A stretch of DNA of 64,000 nucleotides, taken from assembly GCA_050084515.1 (NCBI GenBank), contig CM114271.1, positions 37,944,001-38,008,000 on the forward strand, read 5' to 3'. Position 1 is the stretch's first letter. Every line of letters starts with the position of its first letter. Of the stretch, positions 5,130 to 54,304 are shown one piece after another. The DNA is from Blasia pusilla. Taxonomy: Eukaryota. The notes beneath the pieces are model-generated. The model was not told the DNA's origin. It saw only the letters and a list, made by a program, of their open reading frames with translations, and ran no database searches. The position numbers were made by a program, and so were the translations under genes.

Positions 5130-5146
5130 TATAGCAACAAACTTTT

Positions 5147-5166
5147 TGGTGCCGCTGCCGGGGATC
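5147..5166 (+). promoter_or_regulatory. Primer-binding site complementary to the tRNA-Asp 3' end
   Basis: TGGTGCCGCTGCCGGGGATC versus the canonical Athila-type TGGCGCCGTTGCCGGGGATC (2 mismatches); starts 17 nt after the LTR end. Confidence 0.8.
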
Positions 5167-7560: not shown

Positions 7561-7586
7561 TTCCATCAGGATATTGAGGACCAGGT

Positions 7587-10500: not shown

Positions 10501-10720
10501 CTATAAACGCCGGGGACCTGGTGCTGTTGTATGATAACCGTCGGATAAAGTTCCCTGGAAAGTTAAAATTGAACTAGATGGGACCCTACCGGGTATTGGC
10601 CATCTATGATAACGGATCGCTACAGTTGGGGACCTTGCAGGCCAAATCTTTGCCCACTCGTGTCAATGGAATGCATGTTCGGCGGTATTATGAGCCTCAA
10701 CCCTACGCGGACTCAAACAG
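7587..10720 (+). pseudogene. pol of Athila-like element: aspartic protease, RT, integrase; RNase H deleted
   Basis: PIDSRSGINIM (protease), WVSPIVIVPKK..IRVCHDYRKLN, LDGYSGY, MPFGLCNAP, FLDD (RT); GHY..CQSC-type zinc motif, WGIDFMGP, LVSDYGTHF, NPKANG, GPY (integrase). Multiple stops and frameshifts. Confidence 0.9.
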
Positions 10721-11283
10721 GAGGAAGGGGGTGAGCGACTACCTTGAGCTTCGCAAAAGGGCGAAGCGCGAGGATACTGGGACTTTGCGAAGCGCGCAGC
10801 ATGATGTCTGGGAGCTTCACGAAGCAGCAAAGCGTGCGAGTTCTTGAGCTTTGCAAAGAAGCGAAGCGCCAAACTAACTGTTGCAGTTCCGGCGCCAACA
10901 CCAAGAGCCCGCATAACGTTGGGACTATATAAGCATCCCTACTGAACCAGACGGGTATTTTCATGGATGGAGTCACCACAAAGTTGCGGAGCAGACCAAA
11001 GCGGGGCGTTCACCGAGATCGACCTACCAGCATGCCTCATGAAGACTCCACTCCCATTCTGCGAAGTGCGGCCATACGTATGGTCAAGCTGTCACCAGAG
11101 CTGGTCGAAGCGCTTGAAGAGTGATCTTTGGCAACTTTCTTTCAAGCTAATTGGACATTGACATCGGGGGAACTCCTCGGGGAGCTTCACTCCTCGACTG
11201 CAGCAGCCAAGTTCTGAAGAAAGGGTCTTCGGTATCGAGCTCAGCCCCAACAATGGACACCGGATGACTGGCGCGCCACTTAT

Positions 11284-11715
11284 ATGCTACCGGCTGCTCC
11301 AGAGTATAAGTATGATACCGAGGCCCTAGTAAAACACAAAGATTTATTGACACTCGGTTGTGTCACATCGGATCGTCTGGGCAGGAATGGTTATAAGGCT
11401 ACGTCGTTGTCTCCGCCATTGTTTGGACAGTTTTGTAAGCATTTGATGACATTATTTTACCCCGCTCAATCTTACTACCTAACAAATAAGCTTGTCAGGA
11501 TGTGCTATATCCTTTGGAATCAGCACCTGGACCCCGAAGCACCGGGAGTCGACTTTGCTTCCTTTGTCGATGGGCACGTACGAGCAATGCTGAAGGCGCT
11601 TCATCCGAGCACAAAGTCCTTCTTGTCCCCCTTTACTATTCATGGTTGTTTAACGTCTACGCCTAAGTTTGATAGCTTAGAAGACACATTCATGGATTTA
11701 GAAGGAACATCATGA
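11284..11715 (+). pseudogene. Additional sense ORF remnant of unknown function between integrase and 3' LTR
   Basis: 143-aa open stretch inside the element, downstream of pol; extra 3' ORFs are common in Athila/Tat lineages. No motif recognised. Confidence 0.35.
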
Positions 11716-11740
11716 AGTGTTCGCCAAGGCGGCTCACATA

Positions 11741-11756
11741 TGAGGGAGGGGGTATA
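11741..11756 (+). promoter_or_regulatory. Polypurine tract
   Basis: TGAGGGAGGGGGTATA immediately before the 3' LTR. Confidence 0.85.
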
Positions 11757-12982
11757 TGTGATACAAACAATTTTTTACTTTTGAAGAAATATATCTTTTT
11801 ATTCAACAAAGACTCTTGTACATTATGATTTTGATTTTGATTTATTATTATGAGGAGGACAGAGTAAGATTAAAGTGAATCAAGAAGCTCCAAGGACAAG
11901 GCAAAGAGATGGAAGATCAAGGATTTGCCTAAGAGGAGAGGAGAATAAAATAACGAAGTCTCAAGACTCAGCAAGAAGCTTCGGAATGTCAACGAAGCTC
12001 AACAAAGCTTTGTCTACGAAGTGCTTTGCTCTATAACGAAGCATAACAAAGCAGGAAGAAGAAGAGAAAGAAGTACTTCGCTCTTGTACGAAGTGAGAAG
12101 CACGAAGCACCTTAAACAAGAACGAAGAATGGAGTGCTTCGTCTTCAAGAAGTCCAGCGAAGCAAAGCTAAGAATGAGTGTGATTTCAAGCGACGCACCG
12201 TTAGAACAATTAGACTAGGAAAGGGCACGACCAATTGTATCAAATTGGTAGTTAGGACAGTTTTTTTCTGCGGATTGACAAGGATCGTAGGAAAAGCTAA
12301 GAGAACCATAGATCTAGGTAGTTACAAATGCTGAAGAGACACCAGCTTCATCAAGAACGCTTCGAATCTTTGGATCACTCCTACTCTAGCGAGTATTTAA
12401 GAAGCAAGACAAAAGCCATAATCATCACTCTCTTATGAAGTCCTTATGCTGTAGGAATGGTCCGAGCAAGGGAGTAGTACCCCCTCGAGCTTGTATACAC
12501 CTTTGAAGTTTCCTCATTCTTCATGGAGTAGTAAAGCAATCATTCATTCATTCAGATGTGCGAGGCTTATGTGTGAGTATTCTTTTTGGGTCTGCAGAGT
12601 GAATCAGTCGAGCCCTTCTCATCAATGAAATAATCAACATGAGTTGTAGGAAATCTGTTTGACAGAGAGTAGCCTGCCGAGGAGTTGAGTTCGAAAGTAG
12701 GAGAAGCCAACTTTCTTGTTGAGGTCTCTATGAGGTTTCTTGATATTGAGAGGAAATCTACCTGAGCATGTTGTCAATTCCACTAGAGAGAATTGAGAAA
12801 AGATCCCTTGGTACTAAGAAAGATCCAAATATATTGATAAGACATTGAATATAAATCATACACATTCAAATACAATTATTACAACATAATTGTAATTTCG
12901 AACTCTCTTTTCATCAAACAATGATCCTCTTGGGGATCAAACTCAGTAAACGACTGTAAAATTGAAACTCTTATACATTACA
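11757..12982 (+). repeat. 3' LTR of Athila-like element
   Basis: Direct repeat of 3900-5129, ends CATTACA. Confidence 0.95.
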
Positions 12983-13539: not shown

Positions 13540-15010
13540 CCGCATCCCTCCCACATTCCATCTATCCATCAACTCATTCTCCATCCCCACTCCATCCATT
13601 CGTTCTTCTCCCTCTAAAATCATCCATGAACCCCATCCTTCAATTCATTCCATCCCCCATCTATTTCTGCACTCCTTCTTTGTCCATCTATCCATGCATC
13701 CCATCTTACATCTATCATGTAGGTCTGCCAAAACATATCTTGGGCAAGATTTGAACTTGCATCATCAGGCCGATAGTTGAGTCTTCTACCACTAGCCCAC
13801 ACACTATTGTACGTACGTGTGCAAAAAATACAAAATTGTCATGTCTTGTAGGATAGATTCACGAGATCTAATAGAGCGCCTTTGAGGATATAGGAGCAAG
13901 GCCCCACGAGGTCGAGGATAACCAACAATGGCCACGGATAACCTTAGAGAGTAGGTTTTTCCTTAGTTTCGGCTCATTTGGAACCATATTGAGAAACTTA
14001 CTATTTTATGAGAGATTGTCAGAGAGTCACTTGATTTATTTGCAGATATTTTGGTATTTATCGTTTCAATGTTTGGATGCCATGAGTTAGCATGGGATCG
14101 TATGTGTTTGTGTATATGTTCAATGACAACGACGTATGTTATGTCATGATATGTATGCGCACAGCAAAATACATATAGAAATATTTTTTTTCCTTTTTGC
14201 ATATTTTTACTTTTTAAAACTCATATTTGTATTATTCTTTTTCAAAAATAATTCCCATATTCATATTATTTTATTTTTAAGTCTTTAAGGCTTAAAATCC
14301 ATACATAGAATAATAAATAAGTGATTTTAAAATATTAGATAATCTACGATAATAGTAAACTCATTGATATAATCCAATATGATAGTTTATTAGATCATAT
14401 AAAGTCTGAAAAGAATTTAATGATTACAAAAGCTTATCATTGGAGTTTTTTTTTAGAAAACTTTTCTTGTATTAAATAAAAAAATTTATTCAATCATTAG
14501 TCTGTTGCTGGATGGATATTTCTCAATTCTAAAATTTCAATTATTTTTGAAATAAAATAATAAAAATATGATTTTTTAAAATTAAAAAATTAAACAGTTA
14601 AAAAGATATTTCTATACGTATTAAATTTTTTTGCTCATGTACATACATTCATGTGTGGACTAGAGGTAGAAGACTCCACTACAAGTCTAATGGTGCAAGT
14701 TTAATTCTTGCCCAAGATATATTTTGGCACATCAAGATGATGGATGTACGGTGGGTCACATGGATGGATGGACGGAGACGGAGTTCATAAATAGATGGGG
14801 GATGGAATGCATGGATGGATGGTGTTAATAGATGGAGTTTGGAGGGAAAAGAATGGATAGATGGAATTGACGGATGGGATTAATGGATGAAGAGTGGATG
14901 GAGAAGGAGTTGATGGAGAGATGGGGTGAAAGGATAGAGTAATAATGGAAAGACATAATTGATGGACGGATGGAAGGTGGAAGGTGGAATGGATCCGGAT
15001 AGAGGGTGCA
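13540..15010. mobile_element. Non-autonomous long-TIR (foldback/MULE-like) element with AT-rich core
   Basis: TCCATC-rich 13540-13815 is the approximate reverse complement of GATGGA-rich 14640-15010, including a shared ~90-bp tRNA-like segment. No TSD found; ends uncertain. Confidence 0.5.
13837..14166 (+). mobile_element. 330-bp solo A-B terminal unit of the DNMT/PHD retroelement family
   Basis: Starts TGTCATGTCT, with CGAGATCTA at offset 25 as in 17024; ends ATGTATGCGCACAGCA; perfect 4-bp TSD AAAT. Confidence 0.8.
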
Positions 15011-16288
15011 ACACGTGGAAAAAGTAACGGATGAAGGGTGTATTTGAGATTGGGACCTATAGTTACGTGGTTGGCGACGGATATAGATTCAGCAAGCAAA
15101 CATCCTTAGCATCCTTCTTATCTTACATTTTACTTTATGTTCGAGAGTCTGATTTACGTGTGTCCATTTGTCACAATGTTGGTGAGGTGCTGAACCTTGA
15201 TCAACCTAATGTATGGATGAAAGCATGTTCTCAAAGGGTTGAGTTATTTTGGAGAGTTATGCCCATTGCATTTGAGAACTTGGCGATTGCGTAACATTGG
15301 GATAATTTGAGGTATTCTATTATTTGGGGAGATGATTATCTAGCAATGATCTAGAGGTTCATCAGGGAGACTATGTCTACTTAAACAAACAACACCTACG
15401 TCGACATTGGATGTGACCAAAGGGTGCATCATCTTGAGAGAGTTTGATGCATTGCCATATGTTATTCTTTTAGTGGAGGGACACAAAGATATGTTTTGGA
15501 AGGATCATATGCATAACTATGTGGTATATCACATTCATAGTATTGATGGTATGGTTTATTTGAGCTTAGCATTAGTTCTTCCACACTTGCATTGTATATT
15601 GTGTGGTTTTGACCATGGTGCAACCACTATGCTAGTTTGTGATAGGTGTTCGAGAAGGTGGTATATGGCATGTTAACGCCATCTCCCACTAAGGTTCCTC
15701 CGAGACAATGGATGTGCCCTAGATGTACATAGAATAGAGACTAGGTGGCCATAGATCCAGACTTATATTTTTGAGATGGAGGAAAAGAAGGCGATTAACT
15801 ATGGGATCGTATGATCACCCAACCTTTTTTCTCTTAGCGTCTTAGAGATGTATCTCATGGTAGGTTGGGATAGATGGCTATGTGGAGTTAGAAGGACCTA
15901 ACCACCAAGTACGGGGCCAATTGGAGATATTTTGGTACATGATCCTATCGATGTCTAGATGCTATGAGTGAGTGTGGTATCTTGTATGTTTATATATTTT
16001 TGGTGATAATCATATGTTTTTTTGTAGTGATATGTATGCGACTAAGCGCACGATAACTATCACGTCTTTTAGGATAGATTGACGAGTTTTGGTAGAGTGC
16101 CTTCCAATATATTGGAGAAAAGTCTCAAGAGGTTAAGGATGACCTATTGATACTTTGGAAACTAGAGAAAACAAGTTTCCCTTTTTGTGGGTTTATTTGG
16201 AGCTATATATAGAAACCTCCTATTTTGGGAAAGTTATCGATAGGAATAGAATTGAATTTCCACTTTGAGACCCTTGACCCTCTACAGC

Positions 16289-16734
16289 CATAGTTGCACA
16301 GAAACAGACATGCCCATCCTTGGGACAGACATGTCTAGACAAGTTTGCACATGCCCATCGACATTCCCAACGAGTCCTCCGTCCAGGTTGTTTTTATATC
16401 TTGGTGGCAAGCACGGGCTTGGGATGTGAGAACGGGTGCGGGCTCATATTAAGGGAGATGGCTAGGAATCAGTCCGCACGTAGCCCGCGGAGGGCTAGCT
16501 AAGCTCGAGCATGCTCTCCGCGGGCCTATCAATCATAGGCTTAGGGCAAGCCGGTGCAAGCTACAAAATATTTGACAAGTGCTTAGATTGGCTGTAGGCT
16601 GGTCGATCCCAGGTGTATGTTGCGGGCGGTCTGGGCTCAGGTCTGGGCCACAAGAATCCGCACCCGCACAGACATGTCTATCCTAGGTACGGACATAAGT
16701 CCGCAGACTCGGGCTTTCTCTATGTGCAAGCTTG
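16289..16734. mobile_element. hAT-type MITE
   Basis: TIRs CATAGTTGCAC...GTGCAAGCTTG; 8-bp TSD TCTACAGC/CCTACATC; absent from the homologous site near 54025. Confidence 0.75.
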
Positions 16735-18736
16735 CCTACATCAAGTCAAGAGCCAAGGAAGTGACATGCAAGCATAAGATACCATGGAGAGAGCTTGGGA
16801 GAGGAAAGGGGCTATATCTTGCAAGAGGAGAGAACTTTGGAGCTAGTTCTCTCTCTGTTCACACTAGAGCTGTGGTCCTCCTTACCTTTTGAGTAATCCA
16901 AGGATATTATTAAGAGAGTGGGTTTGGTTTGACTTGAGAGAGATGATTTGTGTGAGAAACATTTTTGCATATTGTGAGACATTTGAGTTCTTATGATTGA
17001 ATTGGATATATTTTGGTACATGATGTCACATCTGAGTGGCCGATAGGCCGAGATCTATCGTGGATAGGGTGGAGCCAGCGGACTATCTTGAGTGTAACTT
17101 TGTCCCACGATGTCGGATGAGGTTGAGGATAGGTCCATTGTGTCAGGAACGTCGTTTCTGACAACTTTCATGTTGAGATCTTTCACAGCCGGGTGACTTG
17201 TTGACCAGGTCACCCACCCCTAGTAACCTGTGCGCGCAGGTTACCAAGGGAAGGGCTATTTTTAGGGGAAGAGCCTTTTGGCTCTTCCCAACCCTATATA
17301 AGAGAGGAAGATGGCTTTCCTAAGCCATCTTTCTCATGTTGGGCCGTTGGAGCACCTCCCTTGTATGTGTGTGAGCTAAGACTAGGGTGCTAGCGTCTGG
17401 ATTCCTTGATAACACAGGGTGGACGAGGCTCGATATACCGATGTAGATTGAGGAGTGGAGTTTTAGGCCGGATGTGCCGTTTTTACTACTCTTTATTTTT
17501 ACATGAGAAAGATGGCAGGGGGTTGGTGGGAATTCGTTGTTTGCAGGCAGGCCAGCGAGTTGCCTCGGTTGGGGAGCCCCTGGAGGCGTGTGTGTGACGT
17601 TTTTTGTGTCATTTTTCTCTTCGGAAGGCCGTGGGCGGAAGCGTTGTCCATTTTTCTCAGATTTTTTGGTGTGCGGATTGATGGGGGGATGGAGAGCGAG
17701 TGTAGTGTGGTGGGGCGTCGGGTGTACGCAAGTGAGGGTGTCGAGAGAGAAGGAAAGGGCAGGTTTGGGTCTTGCAGCCACCGGGGGGCTGTCAAGTAAA
17801 GGCGGCTAGGTTAGGTCGCGAAAGCTAGAGTTAGGTCACGGACGGGTTGGGCGCGGACGGCAGACGGGCTGGTCGCGGACGGCGAGGGGCGCGGACGCCG
17901 CCTCCCCCCCCGCCATTTAGTGCCCTTCCCCAAACTTGGGGAGGCCCATAGGGGTGCGGGCCGCGGTCCAAAGTTTTCCCCCTCTCCAACGTGGTAGGAA
18001 TGGATGCTGTTGTAGCGAACGTGGTAGGACGGACGAGGTCGGTCCGGCGAACACGGTGCGCATGGGCAACGTGCGGGCAGGGAGGATGTCGACGTGGTGG
18101 GTGACCGGCAAGTTGGACAGCGGGCGTGACATGATGTTTTTGGGGCGCGACAGGGCATTGCGAGAGTTTACGATGGAGGGGCAGTGTGCATGATGCCGAC
18201 GGGTTGTCCGCATCTGTTGACGGGAGGATCGACGTGTTGGTCGAGGGGAGTGTTATATGGCGGAGATTATCATATCATGTGGAGGAGTGCATATTGACGG
18301 TGCAAAGAAAGTTGAGGCGTGATCAGGTTACCCATTTGAGTCCCTTTTCCCGCACTTGTCGTGTGTGATTGAGAGTGCTGGGTATCAGGTAGTAGTTGGT
18401 GCTAGATGGTTGCAGTGATGGTGACGAGTGTAGATTCTTTTCATATGTAGCATGTTGGTGGATATACGGCGGTTGCCGAGTAGGGGTCGCGTGTATGATC
18501 CGAGAGAGTGTCGCTAGGTTAGGTGAGTCAGTTGGGAGGCTCATGGTGAGCCCGAGTGTTGAGCGTGCGTGAGGCCGGGTATGTCATTACGGGATGGACG
18601 TTAGCATAGGTGAGCTAGTGAGGCGTGTGGGAGACTCTCGGTGAGTCTAAGTGCTTGAGCGGGTGAGACAGGGTTTGTCATCACGGCGTTCTTCCAGGGT
18701 TCGGAAGAACGGGGTAGTGCGAGCAGTGGTAGTGGT

Positions 18737-20421
18737 GTGACACGGAGTCGAGTGAGATACCGAGGGGTTACTAGTGAGGAGCTCCCTCGACATCCATCCG
18801 TGACTGGATCGTCATTACTGGACACTGGGTCTGGTGACGAGATCACCAACAGAGACAATAGTACTTGGCAGGAGATGGACGACATGGGCCATCGGGGCAT
18901 GCGTCGTTTCTCGGGTGCAGTGGGCACCATCGACTTAGATGATTTCATCCAGGAGTTTGACACATGGTGCGACTTCCAAGAGATACGGACCCCGACACGG
19001 TTCAACCCTTTCATGGCATGGAAGGGGTTGTTCCAGCACTTGGAGGGTCCTCCGATGGATGACTACATGGAGTTTCGATCACTATATTCAGTAGAGATCG
19101 ATGCCTGGAGGATGTATTGGGCTCCAGGGTATGTGTCCACTAGTGATCACGAGGCATATGATGGGATTGTGAGAGGAGAGAGACACACACCATCAGCCCG
19201 GAGACTAGATGGAGAGGAGGGCAATGAGACAGCGATGTGGCGAGAGACCTCTGGTGGTAGAGGTCCCACCCGCCCGGCCCAAGACAAAGTGGAGTTCTTC
19301 CGGCGGTTGGGGAAGAGCTACCAGGGTATGCACGCACCGACAAGGTGAAGAGTCTACAGGATTTTCAGCGACGATCGGGTGAGAGTTTGAGAGAGGCCTT
19401 CACACGCATGAGGAGGCTGATCATGGCTACGTTTGGAGTGACTGAGGCGTAATCAGTCCAGTATTGGTACGGGCTTCTGGACCGAGAACTACGGAGGAGA
19501 GTCCGAGATGCGGTGCTCATTCACACAGCGAAGCCCACATTGAAGGTGGTCTTTGAGTTGTCTGAGCGTATTGAGCTCAACATGAGTGAGGAGCAGGTAG
19601 TGACCGCTGGATTTTCTCGGGAGTCGACGGGTCCACGAGCGGTGGTGACCCCACAGGTGCCACAGCAAGCACCAGTACCACGGGAGCGGGCCAGTGTGCC
19701 TAGAGAGCAGGGCAGGTACCGTGAGCCTATGAGGCAACGACCCGCACCTACATATGTTGCCCAGCAGGGACCGATGTGGTCTTGTTGGACGTGTGGAGGG
19801 GCCCATAGGCTGAGAGACTGCCCACAGCATGGGAGAGGACCACCAGTGCCTCCGATTGCGCAAGAGCCACAAAGGATGGCCCCACCACAGCACCAGTGTG
19901 ACCATTGCCATAGATATGGTCACACTAGGGATAGATGTTTTGACCTTCGCCGAGGGGCACGTCCAGAGGTAGGCCGAGGGCCTGGGGGCAGTCATCTTGG
20001 AGGAGGTTGGGGAGTTCTTCCTGGACGTGGTGGTAGAGGACCACCACCAGCCAGAGGAGATGGAGCAGGAGCACCAGAGCCGGCGCTTCTCTCACGCATT
20101 GATCAGTTGGAGCAGAGGATTGCTGCCATGACGATGATGCAGCTTAGGGAAGGCACGGAGTTGCAAGCACCTAGTGTGACTCCAGTCTCTACCTCTTACC
20201 CTGACCCCGGTGTGGATCTCTCCAATATGGGATTCATGTGTAGTGCAGCCCAGGTTGAGGCAGCTGCAGTGGTGACTCGGGGTGCTGCGAGAGGCATTGA
20301 GCCATCGAGAGGTGGAGTTGAGATTGACCCACCAGAGGGGACCGATGGGCGGCAGGCCAGGGTTCCACAGTCGTTCACATTGTCGGAGGCACTACACACA
20401 CCATCGATGGTGCCTCGATGA
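18737..20421 (+). pseudogene. gag with two CCHC zinc knuckles
   Basis: RFSGAVGTIDLDDFIQEFDTWC; QRRSGESLREAFTRMRRL; CWTCGGAHRLRDC (19783-19821); CDHCHRYGHTRDRC (19897-19938). Frameshift near 19340. Confidence 0.85.
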
Positions 20422-20799
20422 CCAGCGGTGCCTACAGTTCAGGCAACTACGTCGACGTCACGAGGAGTTGGAGTGACAACTCCTATGCCGGCTTGAGTGG
20501 AGTCAGTGTCGACTATAGTGTTGGAGGTGGCCACTAGAGTGAGTCAGACTCGCTATTTTCCGCCTTAGAGTTGGCGACGTTGGGAGTTGGACCGATTGAG
20601 GTGTTCGGTTGGCCGCCACGTTGTGTGAGCGTGAGAGAGATAGCGCTTCTTGTTCAGAGGTAGTTGAGGAGGTGGTGGACTTGCCCTCAGAGCCGGTGCT
20701 TGGGACGTTCCCCATAGAGTCATGGCATGCGGCGGCGGTGAAGTTGGTAGATATGCCAGCTCGACCGGCCATAGAGCGAGAAGTGGTGACACCTGGAGT

Positions 20800-21190
20800 A
20801 GTGTTACTGGATAACCGAGCTGGAGTATTTCGCTTGGTTAGTTTGACGGGGATAGTATACCACCCGCAGCGCGTCCTACTTGATTCGGGAGCGCAACCCT
20901 TGATGTTAGGGAAGGCGGCGTGTTTAGCGTTGGGATTACGGAAGGCCGACATTGAGCCTTGTCCCTTCTAGATAAATACCTCGATTGGGGGCGTATCACC
21001 CACTCAGTATATGACTCGACAGGAGATTGTTGTGAGAGTCAGCCAGAGCATGCGACGGATAGTGCTATGGTGCGCACACATGCGATTACGACACTAGCTG
21101 AGTCGTACAATGTGTTGGTGGGGAGAACAGTGTTATATCCCCTAGGATTCATCCTTGACTTCTGGGAGGAGACCGTTGCTTATCGGCCAT
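20800..21190 (+). pseudogene. Retropepsin aspartic protease domain
   Basis: RVLLDSGAQPLMLG (Asp codon 20882-20884) and downstream YNVLVGRTVL. Confidence 0.85.
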
Positions 21191-21590
21191 GATGGCGGTC
21201 GGTCAGATGAGTCAGTTACCTGTGCAGTTAGCGGGACAAGGTGGTCGATCACGAGGCGAGTCTGTGACCACGTTGGCGGCTTTCACAGGTAGTGTTAGCT
21301 GGCCAGGAGAGTTGTTGGAGGGGAACGCACATGCGAAGGATGTCCCATTAGCGGATAGTCCCACGGAGAGACAGGCCATGGCGGGTGTCTCTTCCCATGT
21401 TAGCGATGCCTCTTCACCATTATGGGGTACGACTCAAGAGCTACAGAGGATGGCCGACGACCTCGTGAGGCAGGCGTGGAGTCATGTTTTTATCCCAGAG
21501 CAGCGAGAGTCACGTGGCGATCGGGCTCTTGGAGTGGAGACGATGACCCCACTAGATACCACACCTGTTGTGTGGCAGTGCCCAGAGGAG

Positions 21591-22550
21591 GGTGTTAGGG
21601 TGTTAGATCTCTTTGGAGGGATTAGCACCGGATTGGCGGCCATATTGCAGGCGGGCATACGGGTGCATCAGTACCTTTATGTGGAGAGAGATGAGACCGC
21701 ACGGCGAGTATCATTACGTCACGTGGCGAGATTGGTCCAGAGGTATCCTGAGTTGTTGTCGGTATCTGCAGTATGGGGATACCAGCATACACTACCCGCC
21801 AACATATCTTTGGTGGGGGCGCAGGATCTGGATAGAGTTGGCACCATTCATTTGGTGATTGCTGGATGGCTATGTCAGGGTCATTCATCAGCTGGCCGAG
21901 GATTTGGATTGCAGGATCCGAGGTCATGGATGCTTTGGGAGATGCTCCGAGTAGTACGACACTTGCAGGAGAGTCAGATATGTTCTCCAGCGTACATTTT
22001 GGAGAACGTGCCATTGTTGGGAGATACTCGTGCACGTGTGATGACGAGTGTACATTAGGTGAGGTCGTGGTTGGGACCTGTTGTGTTGTTAGATGCAGCG
22101 AGAGTTGGGTCACGTGCCCATTGTCCACGACTGTGGTGGACGAACCTGATACCATCAGAGGTACTGAGTCGAGCCTACAATGGAGTCCACAGAGCACCAC
22201 ATCTCACAGTGGATGCTATTTTGGACTCAGGGCGTCGATCTCAGGTGGTGACACGTGATGATAGACCACCATTGGCCACGGGCAATAGGGTGGGGGAGTT
22301 GAGGGCAGCCTTACCTACGTTGGTGAGCTTCCTAGCATCCCATGCCTTTCGTTAGGGAGGGCCAGGCATGATTTGGGATGAGGTGACCGGAGTATTGGAG
22401 GAGCCTACAGCAGATGAGCGCGAGCGTGCCATGGGGTTCACTACCGGTACTACGGCGGTGCCAGGGATGACTGAGACATCACGGAGACAGGTGTTGGGGC
22501 AGGCGATGGACCTCAACTGTCTCACATGGATAGTCAGCCTAGGTATGGCT
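21591..22550 (+). pseudogene. DNMT3-like C5 cytosine DNA methyltransferase domain within pol
   Basis: Motif I VRVLDLFGGISTG; motif IV LVIAGWLCQGHS (normally PCQ); motif VI YILENV; motif VIII RAHCPRLWWTNL; motifs IX/X ERERAMGF...RRQVLGQAM. All in one frame with two internal TAG stops. Confidence 0.92.
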
Positions 22551-22844
22551 GAGCAGAGACGGATGTGAGTGTCATCCATGCCGCCACGTCCACAAGTTGG
22601 ACCACTGCCTACAGGGTCTGTACAGGCATTGGCTGGGGGCCAGATGAGGAGAGATAGGCACCCATGGACTTCCTGGGACGTCGTTCGAGCAGAGAGTGCG
22701 AAGGCGGCTAGAGTAGCACATGTTCATTTTTCGGATGTGGAGCATGGTGTAGGAGGTCAGAGTGGAGTGGTTGTTGCGGAAGTGGCTAGGGTTGCTACAT
22801 AGCAACCAAAGCCGGAGGTTGAGTCCTCTCCGAGTGAGGTCACG

Positions 22845-24290
22845 ATGGAGACTTGGGAGCCTATGATAGGTCTCAAGTTGATAGGAGGAGAGCGACGGCG
22901 AGTTCATAGGTTTCTGAGAGGGCATGTCAGTTGTTTTGCCTTCATTATGAGAGACTTGGGTACGCTGAAGGGTCCCGGGATACGGATTGAGTTGGCTAGT
23001 GATACGCCGATCTTTCGTCGACCCTACAAGTATTCTGATATGGAGCGAGCCTTGATTCAGAGAGGAGTCGGAGGACTTGTTGGAGGCAGGACTTGTGGAG
23101 TTATCACATGGGGAGTATGCATCCGCCAGATCATGCCGGCAAAGAAGGATATGTATGGCAATTGGACGGATAGGCGGATGTGTGGAGATTACCGTCCTAT
23201 CAACCGACACACGAGGTCAGATCGGTATGCCATGCCTACTCGAGGAGATCTTTGATGCGGTAGGGCATGCAAAGATCTTGATTTTTAGATCTTCGTCTTT
23301 GGCTATCATCAGCTTCCTATCAGGTTGGAGGACAGGAGAAGACGACGATTCAGGGGATAGATCGGTTCGGGAGAGATTGCTTTATCGATGGCGGTTCTTA
23401 CCATTTGGGTTGAAGAACGCGCTGCGGAGTTTCAGAGTGATGGATGGATAGGATTCTGGCTGGCTTGGATTTTTGTGCGATGTTACATAGATGATATTCT
23501 TATCTTGAGTTCCACGGTTGAGGAGCATGAGCGACACTTGGAGGAGGTGTTTCGGCGATTGCAGTTACATGGACTGAAGTTACATCCAGGCAAGTGCAGA
23601 TTCCTTTAGGAGCAGATTGAGTACTTGGGACACACCATATACCCGAGTGGGTTAGGCGTTCAATAGACGAAGGTAGAGGCTATTGCGCAGATTCCACGCC
23701 TTATAGATGTGAGTCGAGTCCGAGCATTTCTTGGATTGGCGAACTTCTATCGACGGTATGTCAAGGGTTTTAGTGCGATCGCAAAGTCTTTGACCTTGTT
23801 GACGAGACTTGATCAGGTGTGGTTGTGGGGAGATGATCAAGAACGAGCATTTCAGAGCTCAGGGCAGGTTGAGCGTCCTCACCCATTTTACTGAGAGACC
23901 GGTTCGGGTCGCCCATTCCAATTACATACGGATTGGAGCATGTTGGGTCTAGGAGCAGTGCTTACTCAGAGGGATGACGAGGAGAGGGAGTTCGTTGTGG
24001 CTTACGCGAGCCGATCGAACATCATTGCAGAGGCAAAGCAAAAACGGCCTACGAGGGAGAGTGCTTGGCTGCGGTGTGGGCCATGGCACATTTCAGGTGC
24101 TATTTATTCCGCAACCCTTTCACACTTATATCGATCATCAGCCATTGAGGTGGTTGATGGAGTCCGACAAGCTTACGGGAAAGCTTGCCGGGTGGGCTCT
24201 ATTATCTGCAGGAGTATGAGTTTGAGGTGGTTCATAGGCCAGGTCGGTTGAACCAAGATGCGGATGGGTTGAGTCGTAACCCATGTCCGA
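22845..24290 (+). pseudogene. Reverse transcriptase and RNase H (many frameshifts)
   Basis: PIFRRPYKYS; RRMCGDYRPIN; FLPFGLKNA; CYIDDILI (23481-23504); LKLHPGKC; LHTDWS..GLGAVLTQ; VAYASRS; DHQPL; DADGLSR. Confidence 0.92.
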
Positions 24291-24489
24291 GTCGAGAGAG
24301 GCGACCGAAGCTCGATGGCACGGAGAGAGTGATGAGGAGATGGTGCCGGTTGGCATGCATTTGCCTATCTTTGTTGGTTGACTATGGCGGGTCGACCCAC
24401 AAGTGATGACTCGTGGTGGGGTTGGATGATGAGTCTTTGGATCCGGAGGTCGGTGAGGAGGCGGTGGTGGTCGTGATATCCATGACGAT

Positions 24490-25920
24490 GTGGAGGTTGT
24501 GGAGTTCTTGCGCACTGGCGTCATAGCGAGCACAATGAGTGCTAGGGAGCGGGATCGGATCCTACAGAGAGCCAAGAGGTTCAAGTGGGAGGGGACTCAC
24601 ATTTTGCGGATATGGGGAGATGGTAGGATACGAGTGGTACCTCATCCTTCCCAGCAAGCACGTGTAGTGCGACATGCCCATGAGGAGTTGGGACATTTCG
24701 GAGTAAAGCGTATTTACGACTTACTCAGGTGTTCGATATTGGTGGCGCGGCATGCATACTGGGGTACAGAAGTTTGTGGCCAGATGTATGGTATGTGACA
24801 GAGTGCAAGCATCCTTCAATGCTCCCACTCCGCCGTTACATCCTTTGCCAATTATGGGTTTAGGCTATCGGTGGAGTTTAGACTTTGCGGGACCTTTGCC
24901 ATTGATAGGGCGTCATCATAGGTACGTGTTGGTCATGGTGGAGCATTTCTCCAAGTGGATAGAGTTGGTGGCACTACCAGACAAGGCGAGCAAGGGAACA
25001 GCTTATGCATTTCTAGATCGTGTGCTTAGTCACTTTGGTGCACCGGCGGAGGTGTTGACTGACCAAGGTACCGAGTCCAAGGGAGAGTTTCAGGCCTTGT
25101 GTGATCAGGCGCTGATAGATCACCGTACCACATCCAGGGATCATCCTGAGGCGGATGGGTTGGCGGAGAGAGTGGTACAGACGGTGAAGAGAGGATTGCG
25201 CAAGTATGGCTTGCAGCACGGACAGTTGAGGGAGTGGGACCTACAGTTGCCATGGTTGGCTATGGGTTATCGCTTTAGTCGGCAGGCATCCTTGGCTTCA
25301 TTTTCACCGTACTTTTTGCTCTTTGGGAGAGAGCCTGATTTACCTGCAGCGATTCGACGTGACATGACGGAGGTGTTAGATCTTGATGATCCAGATGTGT
25401 GGGTGCAAGCATGTTCTCAGAGGGCAGAAGTTTTTCGTAGAGTTATGCCTATGGCCTTTGAGAACTTAGCTATTGCCCAACATAGAGATACATTGAGGTA
25501 CGCGACCATTCGTGGAGGAGGTTATCGTCCAGGGATTAGGAGGTTTCATCCTGGAGATTACATGTATTTACAACAGGCGGCACCCACGACGCTAGATGTC
25601 ACTGCAAGGCGCACGATCCTACGTGTGCGCGAGGTATTACCGACCGGAGTCCTCATGTTGGAGGGACGGGATGGCATGGTTTGGAAGGATCATGTGCGCA
25701 ATTGTGCGCCATGTCATCTTTCGAACGTAGATGGGACAGTGGATCCGAGCTTGGCAGTGGTACCTGCAGGCTTGAGGTGTATGTTGTGCGGATCTGCGAG
25801 GGGTGCAGCCACCATGTTGGTATGTGATGGTTGTTCTCGAGGGTGGCATATGTCATGTCTGACCCCCCCCCTCTTGATGTGGTTCCCACGGGACGATGGA
25901 TGTGTTCGAGATGTGTATAG
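24490..25920 (+). pseudogene. DDE integrase with C-terminal PHD finger
   Basis: HAHEELGHFG..CMVC; SLDFAGP; LTDQG; GLAERVVQTVK; then CMLC-x10-CDGC..WHMSCLTPPL, continuing after a poly-C frameshift (25863-25871) as DVVPTGRWMCSRCV-stop (25918-25920). Confidence 0.92.
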
Positions 25921-27059
25921 GGTAGTAGGTCATGTCGAGAGATGTGATATTTTCTATATCGGAGTTGGGGGATCCAAGCGCCCGGCTAGGGGCGGTTGAG
26001 TGATCTCCATGTATATGTATGAGTTGATTTTTGTACATGTGTGGATCGACCCGTGTGTGGGGAAGATCGGTGTTGTGTGGTGTAGATGTGACCAGCGATG
26101 TATGTTGTGTAGCGATATGTATGCGCACGACAATGATCTTCTCGATGTCAAGATCTAAATGTCATGAATTAGTGTGGTATCTTATGTGTTCATGTGTGTA
26201 TTAGGTGACAAGGATATATGTTGTGTAGCGATGTGTATGTACATGACATCTACTAACTCGTCTTCATTAATCCATATTTCAATTCTTCTTGAATATTATG
26301 AAGATTTCAATGAACTTCTTCATAGGTTCAAATCTCACGAGAGCCACAGAGAGTGTTGTAACACAAGAGTACAATGTGACCTAAATCTCCCGTACTCAAT
26401 TCCTTTCAAGAGTTAACTTGAAGATCTCTTCTAGAATTAGTAACTTTGTCATTGAAGAAGTCCAGAAAACTCAAGGCCTAAGGCATTCATATCTACCCTT
26501 GCACATTCTTCCGCTTCAAGGATGCAGTCAAACCTTGTTAAAACAACCTACGTTTGCACCTAGTGACCTACAATCAAAGTTCTTCAACTTCTCTAAGGAG
26601 AATTGCACCCATAAAGAAATCTTCTTCTCCTCATGTTGTAGAATTGTTAGACTCTTTGGTGACACCAAGAAAGAACTACCACACTTTGAAGAAATATTCT
26701 TGGATTATATGACAAAAGCTTTGGTCCTTCCAAGGTGGTAGCACACATTTCACACTAAGTCAAGTATCATCTTTCCGATTTAGAAAGTTAATCAAGACCC
26801 CAGATAGACATGATCTTAAATACAAACTATTCTTAATCTTAACGATTCTTAGAGGTGTTTATGGCTTATGCTTATGTGTAGACCATATCAAAATACTTTT
26901 TTCCTTAAGAAATGATGTGAGAAGGCCAAATGCGTCATCCTAGCACCATGCTCTAGCTATACTAGTTAGCATGCTTGTGCTTGCGCACATAAAGAATTTT
27001 TTAATAATTTAGAAATATTTTTATTTCAGAATTTAAATATAGTTTCCACTTTCTTACAT

Positions 27060-28620: not shown

Positions 28621-30371
28621 AATAGTAATCTAGTGGTAATCTATTTTGTCTTACTTTATCTTATAAGGTAGCCCATTAGTCTTATGAAAGCTTCCCATAG
28701 GAATATGAAGAGATTCGTCACTACACAGAATATGCGTAAGGCCCACTAGAGAATACACATGGCGTACTCACATCGGGAAAATAAAGGGAATCATAGGGTC
28801 AATGGGTTATAAAGGGGGTCGGTGGAAGTGTGGTTTGAAGAAGCATAAAGAAGAAAGATCCTAGCCCTCTCCGAATAATTAGTAGGCCCGCCTAGTGGTT
28901 GAACGTTGAGGTGCGCAAAGTTTTATACATATTCAACTCCCATTGGTTTATAAACTCTTCATCTGTCCTATTTTTCTTTTCAAAACATATTTTACCCATA
29001 TGTTGACCGATGAAGTAAAGTGGGGCGAAGTCTCATGACTAGTCAATGAGCGCCCTACATTTGGGAAGAGTTCAATTAGATCGACCCAAGTCTCTTCCCG
29101 TAGCTGATTTTGACCCCAAATGCTTTTCCCTTTCCCTTCGCATTTATGCCTAGAGATGTAAGTCATTTTGTGTTCAAATAACGGTTGATTTCCTCATTCA
29201 TGCTATAAATGAACAGAATTGGAGTAATCTTACGACCTACTAGTAGTGTAGCGGACTGACATGGTGACTTGGTCCAGGACTCTAGCTGTGCCACCGCAGC
29301 ACATAATGCCAAATTCGAAAGAATGACGACAATCCTCGAGCGTCCCGACGTTCCGTAAAAGGTAACTGCGTTGAGCTGACAAGTGCACATGTTCTCAACA
29401 ACTACTAGCGGTTTGGGGTCCGAGTCCATCCCGTGATGGACAAGGAGTCTCGGACCGATTGGCTTTCTTTGGAGCATTGAGTTATGTAGTAATCAGTAGT
29501 AGGGTATTCTTCCAGTAATACATGCATGGCCACCTTGTGTCACAGTTGTGCCTATCAATCAATTCCCTCTGCACACTGTGAATTATTCTCCGTTCCGGAG
29601 GGGGTGTGGTGACAAAGATGGCGTACGGTAGCACTACATGACTCATGGCTCACAACTTTGCCACCGAATGTGATGAGCATAAAGTGATCGAAACGGGTGA
29701 AATCGCGGTGTGGTAAGTACAAGGTCCTATGTGTGCGTCGTAACTTCATCGCATAGTTCATTGCATGTCCATCGCATTATTCGCATTATTATGGACCACA
29801 CGTAATTTACGTGGAGTTGAAAGCGTGAAGAGCACATACACTCGGTATATAGAGGTCTAAGTAGTGCGAGCCAAGTGATGACTACGGCTCAAGTGTAACT
29901 GTGTAACCTGGAGATAAGTACGATTGTTGGTTTATTGTCAAAGCTTGTACCCCGTGTACCTAGGTTGATCACTTGTACTTATGAAGAAGTCAAGTGTTGT
30001 AGAATCTAGAGTAGAGTTACCGGGGATCTACGCTACACCCGAGCTTCAAACCTTCGAATTATGCAGATCATAAAATGTATTGGGACGGTTGTTTATCTTA
30101 TTTCCCGATCACTAGCTTGAGCGACACTTTCAGCTCCAAAAACACCGAGGAAAGGCCTAGCACATGATTTTGTCGATGATAAGGAAGTTAAATAGGATGT
30201 GCCAAGGAATCCGATTCTTGGGGAAAATAAGGAAATTGTGAGAAATCTATGAAGAATCAGTTTGTTTCCATGAGATTCACACGGAAGAAAAACACTAGGA
30301 GTCTCTTCAAAACTTCTTCATTATGTCCATCGCGTTGCATAGGTTAGGGTCCGGAACCAGCTATAAGGTGT

Positions 30372-33300
30372 CTCATGCTCCGGCGGCGGAGCTCTACGGG
30401 ATGGCGGCGGTGCTCCACGGGGATGGCAGCGGGGAGGGGAAGGAGATGGTGGGATGGAGGATGGAGGGGGGTCGTGTGTTATGTCAAAACGGAGATACCG
30501 ACTTCCTCTACGTTTTGATCCGTATTAGGGTCCTCTTTGTTGTCTCGTTTTGTTGTAATGTTTTGAATGTTTCCAAGACAACTCATGTTGTTATTTCACA
30601 CCACCCCTCTTTTTTTTCTCTATGTCCTTATTCTGTAGCCACACACGTTCCTCGTTCACGTTTGACCCATGTTTTTTATCCCTTATCCCACTCTATTCCC
30701 ATCTATTTTTTCCATCTATTCTTTTTCCATATCACTAGTACCTCCATACTATCTCTACATTATTTGGGGAAGGGGTTGGGCCATATGTCATAGGTAAGAT
30801 AAGATGGTAGATGAGAGTTCATACTAGGGAGAGCATTTTCGTGGACGGGAAGAGAGTCAGTTACCATTAGGGCTAGTTCAAATGGGGGTTGTGGGGCGGA
30901 TTTTGGCGGGGTTTGTCTCTCGAGTTTGACGGAGGGGGTCATGTTCTCTTCTTGGTGAGAGGTGTCCATGCCTAGACCCACATCAGCCCCTCGTGTAGGG
31001 GCTCGTGGATCGTCTAGCCGGGATACGAAATGCCCTTGTTGTCCCGAATTCTTCTTTCGTTCAGGAATTCGGAACCATTTAGCGGCTAAACATCCTGAAT
31101 TTGATAGATTCGGATGGGTGGTTCCTCCAATCGATCATGGATGCTTACCGGTGCTTCATGCATCATCGCCTCCTCCCGAGGCATGGGAGTGGTTGAGGTC
31201 CCACCTTGGCAGTATCACACGTCTCTTTCGGACCCGTTTTTGCTGCCCGAGGTTGTTTCATAGGATCCCCCATGCTATTCAGGATGAGCTTCGCTAGTCT
31301 TTCATCCTTCCCTTATCTAGGATTGCACTTGATCCTATGGATGATCTCTCGTGATATCTACTACTTCTCCTTCCACGATGGTGTCTTTGCTTTACCCGAG
31401 GAGGGAAAGCTGGCCATAGAGAGGTTGTGGCCCGATTGCGGCGCTTTCGAGGAGGTGATTGGGAGTCTCTGCAGAGCGAGTTCGTGGCATATGCCAGAGG
31501 TAGCACTCCACGTGGTTTCCCAGCACACGATCTTGTAGATGCCAGATTGCGACGATGTAGGAGACTTGGGCGAGCCGGGGAGTACTCGCGAGCGGCTCGT
31601 GCGCTCTGCCCCATGGATATGGCTCCTCCTTCCACTGTTACCATTGACGCCCTCCGGAGGCTACACCCTCGTCCAGTGGTTGACATCCCAACATTTGTAC
31701 GTGACTTCCATCCTGACACGACCTTATGCCTAGAGTCGTCCCTCTTTGCACGGGCACTCGGGCGTTCCCCTAGGATAGCAGCTGGAGGGTTGTCCGGTAT
31801 GATGTACGAACACCTTTGTGATTGCTTTCCCTTTGAGGACTCTGCTAGCGGCTTTTCCGAGTTGCTTCAAGTTGCCTCTCACCTAGCTCAGGGGAGAGTG
31901 CCAACAGCAGTAGGCTAGGTATTGGGGGCGGGGCGACTTTTGGCGTTATCGAAGGAGGGTGGAGGGATCCGTCCGATTGCCAAAGGGGAGGTGCTCTTGC
32001 GGTTGGTGAGTCGCACTATCGCTTTGCAGTTCCGTGAGGCTTTCCAGTCACATCTGAGTCCGCACCAGTTCGGAGTGGCCACGCCAGCCGGTTGTGAGGC
32101 TGTAGCCTTAGGTTTGAGGGCTTGTTTAGATATACATCCGGAGTGGGTGGTTCTCCAAGTTGACGTGGAGAACGCTTTAACTCAGTGTCTCGGGCAGCAA
32201 TCTTCACGGAGTTGAGAGATGCAAGGGGTCCCATAGCGAGCCTGATTCTCTTCGTGCATGCTTTTTATGGGGCTCCCTCGGCTCTCTATTTTCACCACGG
32301 TAGGTTCGAGGAGGAGGTCACGGTCTTCGAGTCTGCTACCGGGACGTGTCAGGGTGATCCCTGGGTGGTGCATTGTTTGCTTTGGCTCATTATCGAGCGG
32401 TTCTTTCTACGGTGGAGGCTTTCCCGGGTTGCATTTTCCCTTCGTTGGCAAATGATACTCACATTGTCGGCCCTGGAGACTTGGTTGTTCTTGCATTTCA
32501 GCACTTTTCAGCACAGTTGGCACACGTCGGCCTCGTGGTGAAGGTGGGAAAGTGCAAGGCTTGGTCTTCATTAGGCTGGTCAGCGGATATTCATTTACCC
32601 GACGGTTTTTTGATACCTGCTAGAGGGCTTTGCGTCTTGGGAGTCCCACTCGAGAGCCAAGACTTTGTATCGAGTTTTGTGGCGGCGGCTCTTACCGAGG
32701 ATCTTCTTCATGTCAACGATCTCACGAGGATTGGTGACCCTCAAGTAGCTTATGGAATCCTCTCGTCATGTTTTGCCCGTAGACTTGGTTATCTGTGTAG
32801 AACCGTGTGGGCGACTAGCCATATTTCTTCCTTGTATAGATTCTTTGATAGAAAGATTATGCAGGCGTTTGGGGATCTTCTAGGACCCGGCTCATTAGAG
32901 TGCCCCGCGAGGGAGTTAGCTCGTAGACAGGCTTCTTGGCCGATTGCCTTTGGTGGAGTAGGGCTCATAGCGACTGAGTTAGTGGCGTCTTCAGCCTTTT
33001 TAGGGAGTTGGGCCACTATAGCACCCTTCCTTTGCTCCTGATTTTTGGTTAGGGATAGACTGCTACTTTTACAGTACGTTTCCCAGGTTGAGGATGGTCT
33101 TTTCCCAATTCAGTCTTCACTCATAGCTTGTAGAGACTCCCTTCTTGTTGAGGCTAGAGCAGTTCTTCCCGCTTTCTCTTCGCTAGTTACCTCCGGACAG
33201 TCTGGGCTCCAATCTTCTTTGATGGAAGCCCACTTTGATGCATTTTTTAGAGCTACTATGTCGGACAGGAATATCCCCATGGAGGTTCGGGCCCGTATTC

Positions 33301-34224
33301 GCTCTTGCTCCGGAAAGGGGGAAGGCTCATGGGTGGGGGCTCGTCCCCTCATCCCGGCTTTCCGCATCGCACCACTTACCTACACTACATCGATGAGGTT
33401 CCGACTGGGCCTGCCCCAACCAACGGTGATTGGTTTGACACATTGCGAGTGTCACTAGAGTCTGGATCCACTTGGTGTGCATTTGGCACGGTGTCCAGTT
33501 GGGGGTGAGAGGATAGCCACTCACAATGTTGTGCAAGATATTATGTTCTCTATTGCTCGGGAGAGTGGATTCCATGTACAAAGAGAGAGGCACTACTCCA
33601 TGCGGGATTCCCTTATCCGTGCTGATCTCTACATGACGAGGGAGTCTGAGGTGGTGGTAGCGGATGTTGTAGTGACTGATCCTACGCGGGAGGCAGTGCG
33701 AGCCCAAGTGGTAGCACAAGGGAGATTGCTACAAGGAGCGGCGGCTGCGGCGGCGGTCAAGAAGACCCACATTTATAGTCGACTTCATGACGGACATCGA
33801 TTTATCCCCCTAGCCATTCAGATGTACGGGGCGATGGGGGAGAGGTTTGACTCATTCTTTACGGATTGCACCCATCATCTCCAGTTGAGAAATGGGTTGT
33901 CCTTAGCCACTGCGATACTTTATTGTAGGCAACGGGTCTCCATAGCTTTGCAGCGTGCCCAGCCAAATGGGCTTCTGCGGCGGGCTCATGCGGTTGGAGA
34001 CGCCAATGCTAGAGGCCCACTTAGTAGTAGTCATAGTTCTCTAGGTGTTGCTGATATTGTCTCTGCTGTTGGTGATTTTGGTCGTTAGGGTTGAAGGCCC
34101 CCTTCTTTCTCCTCGGGGCCGGTTCCGGCCTCTTGAGGTCTATTTTTTGGGTCTCCATGCCTCCTCTTTTGTATCGTGATGGGTTTCCCATCCTTTTTCT
34201 ACATATATATATTTTTATTCTCTC
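30372..34224 (+). mobile_element. CRE-like non-LTR retrotransposon with restriction-like endonuclease, apparently full length, degenerate
   Basis: Perfect 12-bp TSD GCTATAAGGTGT (30360-30371 and 34225-34236); single broken ORF with zinc finger, RT and RLE. Confidence 0.88.
30968..34088 (+). pseudogene. Non-LTR ORF: C2H2 zinc finger - RT - CCHC - PD-(D/E)xK endonuclease
   Basis: CPCC..RNHLAAKH; GGIRPIAKGEVLLRL; PHQFGV; VDVENA; GTCQGDP; SLANDTHIVG; CECH..HLARC; THNVVQD; RADL..ADVVVTDP; FIPLAIQMYG. Confidence 0.88.
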
Positions 34225-51605: not shown

Positions 51606-51677
51606 CCTCTGGATTTACCTGTCGCCATTCGTCAAGATGTTGTTGAGGTGTTGAACCTCAATGACCCTAATGTATGG

Positions 51678-54300: not shown

Positions 54301-54304
<4 letters not shown>

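Follow-up and report, generated by a model that had tools for sequence, protein, structure and literature searches.

A DNMT3-like cytosine methyltransferase domain in a Ty3/gypsy-type retroelement of Blasia pusilla and other land plants

Retrotransposons that carry a cytosine-C5 DNA methyltransferase (C5-MTase; here DNMT), an enzyme normally used to silence them, are described in Symbiodinium and Klebsormidium only, as far as the text of de Mendoza et al. (2018, PMC5890265) goes. Two later papers (PMC12344493 and bioRxiv 10.64898/2026.05.21.726589) name "streptophytes" as hosts in passages citing that 2018 paper alone, and a passage of a review gives such elements as absent from land plants (PMC6338049). 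The present analysis concerns a window of 64,000 nucleotides from Blasia pusilla (assembly GCA_050084515.1, contig CM114271.1, positions 37,944,001–38,008,000, forward strand; positions below are those of the window), in which the region ~17038–26245 (+) is very probably a dead, 3′-truncated copy of a bryophyte Ty3/gypsy-type family with a DNMT3-like enzyme. A full-text search of the literature found no description of a retrotransposon-borne DNMT in bryophytes or other land plants, although figures and supplements of PMC5890265 and PMC12344493 may list copies. The sequence-only reading that first drew attention to this locus had known of no land-plant example; this agrees with the published descriptions, but many copies are already present in public bryophyte annotations, under the label "hypothetical protein". 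What is new is the extension of the host range of Gypsy-DNMT3 elements to land plants (liverworts and peat mosses), whereas the kind of element itself was already known.

The closest described system is KnitGypsy-Dnmt3 of Klebsormidium nitens, with which the Blasia element shares, by the published description (PMC5890265), a Gypsy-type domain set, an unpermuted DNMT3-like domain within the polyprotein and purifying selection (Ka/Ks below 0.2 there, 0.09–0.17 here); among the relatives retrieved here, none is named as a K. nitens sequence. DIRS-like repeats in place of plain long terminal repeats (LTRs), described for that element, are seen in three relatives of the Blasia copy and are suggested in Blasia by A-to-B joints. 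The hosts differ, being land plants here. The putative leaky stop after the first open reading frame (ORF1) and the two domain orders described below may or may not hold for the Klebsormidium element too. Retrotransposon-borne C5-MTases of Symbiodinium (SymbioDIRS-Dnmt3 and SymbioLINE-Dnmt) are similar in other respects: as the same paper describes them, SymbioDIRS-Dnmt3 has a DNMT3-like domain in Pol and the repeat layout A-coding-B-A-B, and two domain orders coexist among the elements of that host, as they do among the relatives of the Blasia element. The Symbiodinium elements depend on either a tyrosine recombinase or the endonuclease of a LINE; the element described here has instead an integrase of the DDE type (rve), to which a PHD finger is attached, as well as Gag and a protease.

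The methyltransferase domain and the family that carries it

The segment 21591–22802 (+) is a DNMT3-like, unpermuted C5-MTase domain. With its stops read as X, the window frame matches PF00145 in Pfam at 24.1 bits (E 2.8e-5), above the curated cut-off of 22, and relatives of the element match at 35.6 bits (protein P0123) and 51.1 bits (ORF1 of the metagenome locus L028). When the same frame was compared by phmmer with all PDB chains, the top match was the catalytic domain of DNMT3A (E 1.3e-5), in a colinear, unpermuted alignment of query residues 11–196 with chain residues 6–171 and of 285–318 with 235–268, followed by DNMT3B/3C and then by DRM2 (0.036) and HhaI (~0.9). A profile of the family, built from 15 sequences and run against the PDB, yields the same ranking with far lower E values for DNMT3A (8.5e-23), DNMT3C (3e-20) and DNMT3B (3e-19) than for tobacco DRM (1e-9), DRM2 (5e-8), HaeIII/HhaI (~5e-6) and DNMT2 (6e-5), and it has no match to DNMT1 at E ≤1e-3. 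The fold leads to the same enzymes: the best Foldseek matches of an AlphaFold2 model of the domain (pLDDT 82.5, pTM 0.85) are DNMT3B/3A/3C (E ~2e-17, target-normalised TM 0.75–0.79, 18–20% identity), and all 48 top matches listed are DNMT3. Among solved structures, DNMT3 is thus nearer to the window domain than are DNMT1, DNMT2, DRM and the bacterial enzymes, in agreement with the sequence-only reading, which had assigned it to the DNMT3 type in unpermuted order.

Motifs I, IV, VI, VIII, IX and X, numbered by the standard I–X scheme, follow each other in canonical order both in the alignment with DNMT3A and in the family alignment (A1), and all of the strings quoted earlier are found in the window translation (VRVLDLFGGISTG, IAGWLCQGHS, ILENVPLLG, SRAHCPRLWWTNL, ADERERAMGF and RRQVLGQAMD). 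The Protein Atlas adds nothing for this domain beyond generic PF00145 clusters. The host enzymes most similar to it are animal DNMT3A/B/C and the plant DNMT3 with a DUF3444 domain, as the latter is described by Yaari et al. (2019, PMC6453930); they provide the best catalytic-domain match and are unpermuted, unlike DRM. The element enzyme differs from them in its low identity (~18–20% to human DNMT3A/B by structural alignment), in being fused to Gag and protease, and in its lack of accessory domains, since Pfam finds no PWWP, ADD or DUF3444 in the ORF1 of P0123 and L028, where only PF00145 and the protease are matched. In addition, the PHD finger of the element is placed on the integrase and not on the DNMT.

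The position of the domain between the protease and the reverse transcriptase (RT) of a retroelement, proposed from the sequence alone, also stands: a protease with the motif LLDSGAQ lies upstream (20606–21200), and matches to RVT_1 and RNase H (RH) lie downstream (22803–24040). Whether such an arrangement belongs to a family or to a single copy can be judged from its relatives. The relatives retrieved by a protein search number 142 at a similar length and 41 at a greater one; those with a source name, at ≤72% identity, belong to Marchantia polymorpha, M. paleacea, Riccia sorocarpa, Calypogeia fissa and Sphagnum (several species). When 1.84 billion representatives were searched with a profile, 13,643 matches were obtained at E ≤1e-3, 2,626 at ≤1e-10 and 547 at ≤1e-30, the best 150 of which are mostly 1,000–3,400 residues long. 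Of 368 candidate stretches in a scan of metagenomes, 250 encode relatives, from which 80 loci were retained. Mapping of domains over these loci and the window separates two types. Type A, comprising 57 loci and the window, has the order Gag-PR-DNMT-RT-RH-INT-PHD (PR, protease; INT, integrase); in its 58 copies the protease is seen upstream of the DNMT in 44, RT downstream in 41 and both in 31, and RT or RH is found upstream of the DNMT in none. Type B (23 loci, DNMT identities of 35–42%) has the order RT-RH-DNMT-INT-PHD, with RT or RH upstream in 19 of the 23, integrase downstream in 22 and RT downstream in none. The DNMT of type B is open in 23/23 loci and shares one open frame of 1,129–3,609 codons with the integrase in 20/23; the named hosts are the chlorophytes Haematococcus lacustris, Monoraphidium neglectum, Chromochloris zofingiensis and Cymbomonas tetramitiformis. 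Gypsy-DNMT3 elements accordingly have a large sister group in chlorophyte algae, with a domain order of its own.

A quick IQ-TREE phylogeny of the DNMT, built from 52 rows of element-type relatives, places the window within a clade of 13 rows together with copies from Calypogeia, Marchantia, Sphagnum and metagenomes (SH-aLRT 98). The 47–50% subclades comprise L028–L030, L035, P0136 and P0140. Across alignment A1, residues C105, Q106, E148 and N149 do not vary, PCQ being the rule in relatives, and the intact relatives retain the PCQ, ENV and RxR motifs.

The constraint on the enzyme was estimated as the ratio of nonsynonymous to synonymous change (dN/dS, omega) by the Nei–Gojobori method on codon alignments, with stop codons skipped. 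Between the window and 21 type A relatives, dN of the DNMT is 0.23–0.30 and dS ~1.8–2.7, giving an omega of 0.09–0.17, similar to that of RT (0.12–0.18 against eight relatives). In type B, the median omega is 0.25 for DNMT, 0.26 for RT and 0.26 for INT, calculated from 59 of 253, 18 of 91 and 47 of 190 pairs, respectively, the remaining pairs being saturated. These codon comparisons indicate that the DNMT is kept by selection as strong as that acting on the core enzymes of the retroelement. Several observations weigh against this interpretation. Synonymous change from the window to its relatives has reached saturation (dS ~2), making the omega values approximate. When the window and the 22 loci closest to it in type A are compared with one another, the median omega is 0.55 for DNMT (from 249 of 253 pairs), while RT gives 0.43 and PR 0.49, as would be expected if most differences arose after insertion; in this group, selection is mixed with post-insertion decay. 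Finally, most of the close bryophyte-type metagenome copies are degenerate, and a stop-free, full-length DNMT is found in only two of the 22 related type A loci scored.

A chance event, in which a fragment of a host DNMT3 gene or pseudogene landed in just one gypsy copy without serving the element, would be in keeping with the broken state of the window DNMT, which has three premature stops and altered motifs IV and VIII. Such a one-off capture is nevertheless rejected here as extremely improbable, in view of the PR-DNMT-RT order, which has no exception and is complete in the 31 of 58 copies with both neighbours visible, of the DNMT-bearing relatives in several liverwort and moss genera, of the omega of 0.09–0.17, and of the catalytic residues that are invariant in relatives. 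The DNMT is a feature of the family. Neither outcome that the sequence-only reading had named as refuting it, a missing PF00145 match or family copies in which the domain is absent or out of frame and neutral, is thus observed.

Independent captures of DNMT3-like genes by the PR-DNMT-RT and RH-DNMT-INT types, as opposed to a single capture followed by a change of position in the polyprotein, would explain why the insertion slots of the bryophyte and chlorophyte types are different; the two types also fall on opposite sides of the midpoint root of the DNMT tree, with weak support (76), and recurrent capture is documented in other lineages in the text of PMC5890265. On the other hand, by tblastn the window integrase is 51% identical to those of the chlorophyte-type P0146/P0150 as compared with 27–29% for the other gypsy element of the window, both types end with the same C-terminal PHD finger, and the DNMTs of types A and B are each other's strong matches (E ≤1e-57). 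We regard separate captures as possible, though not favoured.

Among the relatives, protein P0016, which a public record assigns as a DNA cytosine methyltransferase to a bacterial metagenome-assembled genome (Candidatus Obscuribacterales), is near-identical to the retroelement DNMT of L028 (branches 0.032 and 0.033), and the contig that carries it is probably a mis-binned eukaryotic one. In the chlorophyte-type locus L057, a 3.5-kb segment (1–3492) is repeated at 6557–10048 with 99.97% identity and a spacing of 6,556 bp, and the chlorophyte-type L069:1–1648 is a perfect tandem duplication of 824 bp; these repeats hint at head-to-tail arrays, or at variants with a common RT-RH part that differ downstream.

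The conserved stop between methyltransferase and reverse transcriptase

According to the sequence-only reading, a frame running from 21189 to ~23070 continues from the DNMT into RT and is broken by four stops only. The frame (21189–23072, +) and the count are correct, the stops being located at 22056 (TAG), 22353 (TAG), 22566 (TGA) and 22800 (TAG), but the last of them is not a random break. Among the 40 type A copies that keep the 5′ end of RT, 39 have a stop at the homologous codon, L019 alone being without one; the stop is in frame, and conserved peptide is present on either side of it. Counted back from the start of the RT alignment, the stop is 18 codons away in the majority of copies; the window has 19, L035 has 20 and the L028–L030 subclade has 25. 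In the homologous span of type B, any stop is found in only one of 16 copies. Seven independent gene models (five from Marchantia, one from Calypogeia and one from a metagenome) end at this site, 59–65 residues past the DNMT. The intact relative L028 shows the arrangement in full, with a Gag-PR-DNMT frame of 1,369 codons, the context TAG CAG TTA, and then ~1,050 open codons encoding RT-RH-INT-PHD. As the aligned copies indicate, the stop at 22800 is a conserved feature of the family and not a product of decay.

The nucleotides around the stop are also conserved. The context is TAG CAA CCC in 22 copies, TAA CAA CCC in eight, TAG CAA CCA in two (including the window, 22800–22808) and TAG CAG TTA in two, with TAG CAA TCA, TAA CAA CCA, TAG CAA CCT, TAA CAA CTC and TAG TAG CCA found in one copy each. 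The stop is thus TAG in 29 of the 39 copies, the next codon is CAA or CAG in 38 (CAA in 36), and the third codon starts with two pyrimidines in all 39, ending as YYA in seven (six of them after CAR). Leaky stops of type I require no RNA structure. The UAG CAA CCA of the window fits the motif of this type in tobamoviruses, UAG_CAR_YYA, as stated in the text of Firth and Brierley (2012, PMC3542737). An in-frame UAG between an abundant product and the polymerase is common to this tobamovirus stop, to the gag-UAG-pol junction of gammaretroviruses and to the present element, which is unlike both viral systems in that most copies have CAA CCC, in that protease and methyltransferase are placed upstream of the stop, and in that readthrough is here a prediction.

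We consider it likely, from these alignments, that UAG-CAA-CCA ends ORF1, with Gag-PR-DNMT as the main product and with the long form, Gag-PR-DNMT-RT-RH-INT-PHD, generated by low-level readthrough. Two features of the contexts weigh against this model, namely that the third codon is CCC and not the optimal YYA in 30 of the 39, and that the stop is TAA in ten. A rather unlikely alternative is that the conserved UAG is a true terminator and that RT-RH-INT is made by reinitiation, by internal entry, from a spliced or subgenomic RNA, or in trans. Besides the preponderance of CAA CCC over the optimal CAR YYA, it would account for the annotated Marchantia and Calypogeia proteins that end at this UAG, and for the depth of RNA reads (at ≥95% likeness), which is greater over RT-INT than over Gag-DNMT, although divergence from the expressed copies may alone explain the latter. 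It would leave unexplained why ORF2 is kept in the frame of ORF1 across lineages with saturated synonymous sites, and the near-invariant CAA/CAG after the stop points to constraint at the nucleotide level.

The earlier placement of the DNMT inside pol needs to be modified: the enzyme does share the frame of RT, but it is the C-terminal domain of a Gag-PR-DNMT ORF1 that ends at the conserved stop. If readthrough occurs as proposed, it would be made in step with the capsid protein and not with RT and integrase. The leaky-stop context provides in this way a concrete, testable statement on the amount of the methyltransferase relative to RT and integrase.

Layout, expression and decay of the Blasia copy

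The layout of the copy was derived from tblastn with Marchantia and metagenome relatives, from Pfam matches and from a count of lesions. The element is 9.2 kb long, with the order Gag (two CCHC knuckles)-PR-DNMT, stop, RT-RNase H-integrase-PHD, and all of its parts are on the + strand. It starts with terminal repeat A1 (17038–17500, start approximate), placed by A-to-B joints, by a peak of depth and by the layout of L042, L053 and L054. A leader without protein similarity (17501–18874) extends to the start of gag, where residue 1 of P0123 aligns at 18875. Gag itself (18875–20520, tblastn with P0123 residues 1–525) passes from frame 2 to frame 1; its two CCHC zinc knuckles, CWTCGGAHRLRDC and CDHCHRYGHTRDRC, are present in the translation, which is damaged by three premature stops (19450, 20419 and 20494) and one internal frameshift. 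The aspartic protease that follows (20606–21200, P0123 residues 547–745) has two premature stops (20969 and 21190) as well as frameshifts, and the protease of the intact relative L028 matches Asp_protease_2 in Pfam.

The DNMT with its linker and tail occupies 21201–22799, as judged by PF00145, PDB and fold matches, with the core at 21525–22565 and motif I starting at 21591. After the stop, RT continues in the DNMT frame (22809–24038; tblastn with P0129 residues 696–1039; RVT_1 at 6.9e-14) and has six premature stops. RNase H (24044–24298; tblastn, RT_RNaseH and RT_RNaseH_2) is frameshifted and contains two stops. The integrase region (24475–25920) comprises an H2C2 zinc domain, the rve core and the C-terminal PHD finger (~25778–25873), identified by the Pfam families Integrase_H2C2, rve and PHD; it has two frameshifts and no stop. 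A chromatin-reader module at the C terminus of the integrase is also found in chromoviruses, Ty3/gypsy elements that carry a chromodomain there, whereas the present element has a PHD finger in its place. The copy ends with terminal repeat B1 (25996–26245), which contains an internal duplication of ~119 bp.

The ends were examined by placing three RNA runs and one set of DNA contigs, all from the same species as the window, on the region 16500–26500. Positions 17498–17501 are joined to 25994–26008 in many variants of the DNA contigs and in 17 RNA reads, a joint matching the junction between A and B in other copies. Maxima of depth fall in the bins 16834–17501 and 25852–26185, the latter being the highest, and depth collapses after ~26245; within B1, the contigs also show a joint from 26100 to 26220. 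From the joints and the depth profile it follows that A1 ends at 17500, that B1 spans ~25996–26245 and that A2-B2 is missing. Split direct repeats in the arrangement A-coding-B-A-B are seen in L042, L053 and L054, with A of ~340 bp (88–92% identity) and B of ~113 bp (89–94%). Against the split-repeat assignment stand the absence of any A-like sequence after B1, so that A2-B2 is absent in the window copy, and the occurrence of split repeats in just three of the nine type A loci examined. Self-BLAST and sensitive local alignment found no LTR and no A1/A2 pair around the window copy (best local score 25, below the shuffle maximum of 33), and tRNA-Met-type primer-binding motifs, six in number compared with 4.6 expected by chance, were not found near the element. 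A motif of ~30–35 nt (...GTTGTGTAGCGATATGTATGC...) recurs near the ends of B-like repeats at 26093–26128, 26210–26245 and, in a neighbouring remnant, 16020–16050. RNA reads of diverged sister copies anchor on this motif, whose role could be that of a conserved signal for the element end or for priming.

In the three runs, 227, 308 and 278 RNA reads fall on the element at ≥95% likeness, mostly in the sense direction over RT-INT; the sense call is based on strand bias and assumes stranded libraries. At position 21871, all 24 RNA reads have C, whereas the window copy has T; C gives a proline codon in motif IV. Thus, sister copies with the motif IV proline are transcribed in Blasia pusilla. The reads are mostly 95–99% alike, and over half of them lie only partly on the stretch, so that they come from sister copies and not from the window copy; this, together with the low RNA depth over the DNMT (0–1 in most bins), limits the evidence from expression.

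The window copy, as its sequence reads, is unable to encode an active enzyme, because the DNMT contains three premature stops (22056, 22353 and 22566), the whole element 17 premature stops and at least seven frameshifts, and two motifs are altered. Motif IV is GWLCQG (codon CTA, 21870) where relatives have GWPCQG, and motif VIII is AHCPR (TGT, 22122) where relatives have AHRPR; the ENV motif is kept, while the Pro-Cys of motif IV and RxR are not intact. The ratio of observed to expected CpG is 0.63 in the DNMT, 0.78 in the element and 0.68 in the whole window, and TpG+CpA is raised in the element (1.22–1.38 versus 1.09). This pattern fits methylation-driven decay, host methylation and self-methylation not being separable by it.

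Proposed function and surroundings of the element

We can speculate that the methyltransferase would be made within Gag-PR-DNMT in capsid-like amounts and then cleaved out by the protease of the element, and that the released enzyme would act on the cDNA of the element or on its insertion site, an idea raised in the text of PMC5890265 for DIRS-type elements. The PHD finger could in turn direct insertion to silent chromatin, unmethylated at lysine 4 of histone H3 (H3K4). Its best PDB matches are CHD4, PHF12, PHF21A, KDM5, ATXR5 and UHRF1. Several of these proteins read unmethylated H3K4, and the PHD finger of the element may do the same. The combined model, with a DNMT packaged with Gag that would methylate its own new cDNA or insertion, and with a PHD-tipped integrase that would steer it to H3K4-unmethylated chromatin, is a tentative one.

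Action of the DNMT in trans is a possibility of similarly modest probability; its targets could be host chromatin, competing elements or RNA, or it could serve as a decoy that disturbs host silencing. The placement in ORF1 would provide large amounts of DNMT together with Gag, and for one Symbiodinium LINE-borne DNMT the text of PMC5890265 reports no DNA methylation in yeast and discusses RNA methylation. An RNA target agrees less well with the fold and motifs, which are those of a DNA C5-MTase nearest to DNMT3. Returning to the model of a packaged enzyme acting on its own element, it may be extended, with comparable reserve, to a gypsy-like lineage present throughout green plants and characterized by split repeats, a DNMT3 domain and a PHD-tipped integrase, which would be older than the chlorophyte–streptophyte split and would persist in land plants. 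The DNMT would then have moved into the Gag-protease ORF, ahead of a leaky UAG of tobamovirus type, so that its amount would follow that of the capsid protein and it would be packaged for methylation of the element's own cDNA; an exchange of DNMT3 with hosts is also possible. Since Marchantia is tractable and methylation mutants of it exist, the benefit to a transposon of carrying a DNMT, an enzyme normally directed against it, is directly testable in a land plant.

The DNMT copy sits among remnants of its relatives. Its 5′ end is abutted by the remnant 3′ end of a related element (15079–17035, +), with an integrase C terminus (tblastn with P0146 residues 1452–1667 at 15079–15726) and B/A-like repeats; this remnant has ~71–72% nucleotide similarity to 25802–26239 and to 52976–54449. 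Fragments of the integrase C terminus and PHD finger of diverged relatives occur at 15079–15726 and 53221–53478, and B-like repeat units of ~110–150 bp at 14037–14162, 15920–16040, 53663–53782 and 54326–54449, the nucleotide identity of fragments and units being ~71–80%.

A second, unrelated Ty3/gypsy element is located at 3900–12982, bounded by 1.23-kb LTRs that are 97.3% identical (3900–5129 and 11757–12982). It has no DNMT, and its RT (~8519–9353) and integrase (~9459–10628) are 27–29% identical to those of the DNMT element. A tandem array at 48047–49510, with a period of 180 bp, 8.1 copies and 82% matches, looks like a satellite. Fragments of a hAT-type transposase (50047–51614, −) include the hAT dimerisation domain and DUF659, and these hAT pieces provide the only Pfam matches among the ten other long ORFs of the window. 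At 30299–34088 (+), a GC-rich stretch without any match in Pfam contains long ORFs interrupted by stops, one frame having 577 codons and two internal stops; it may be a further degenerate mobile element.

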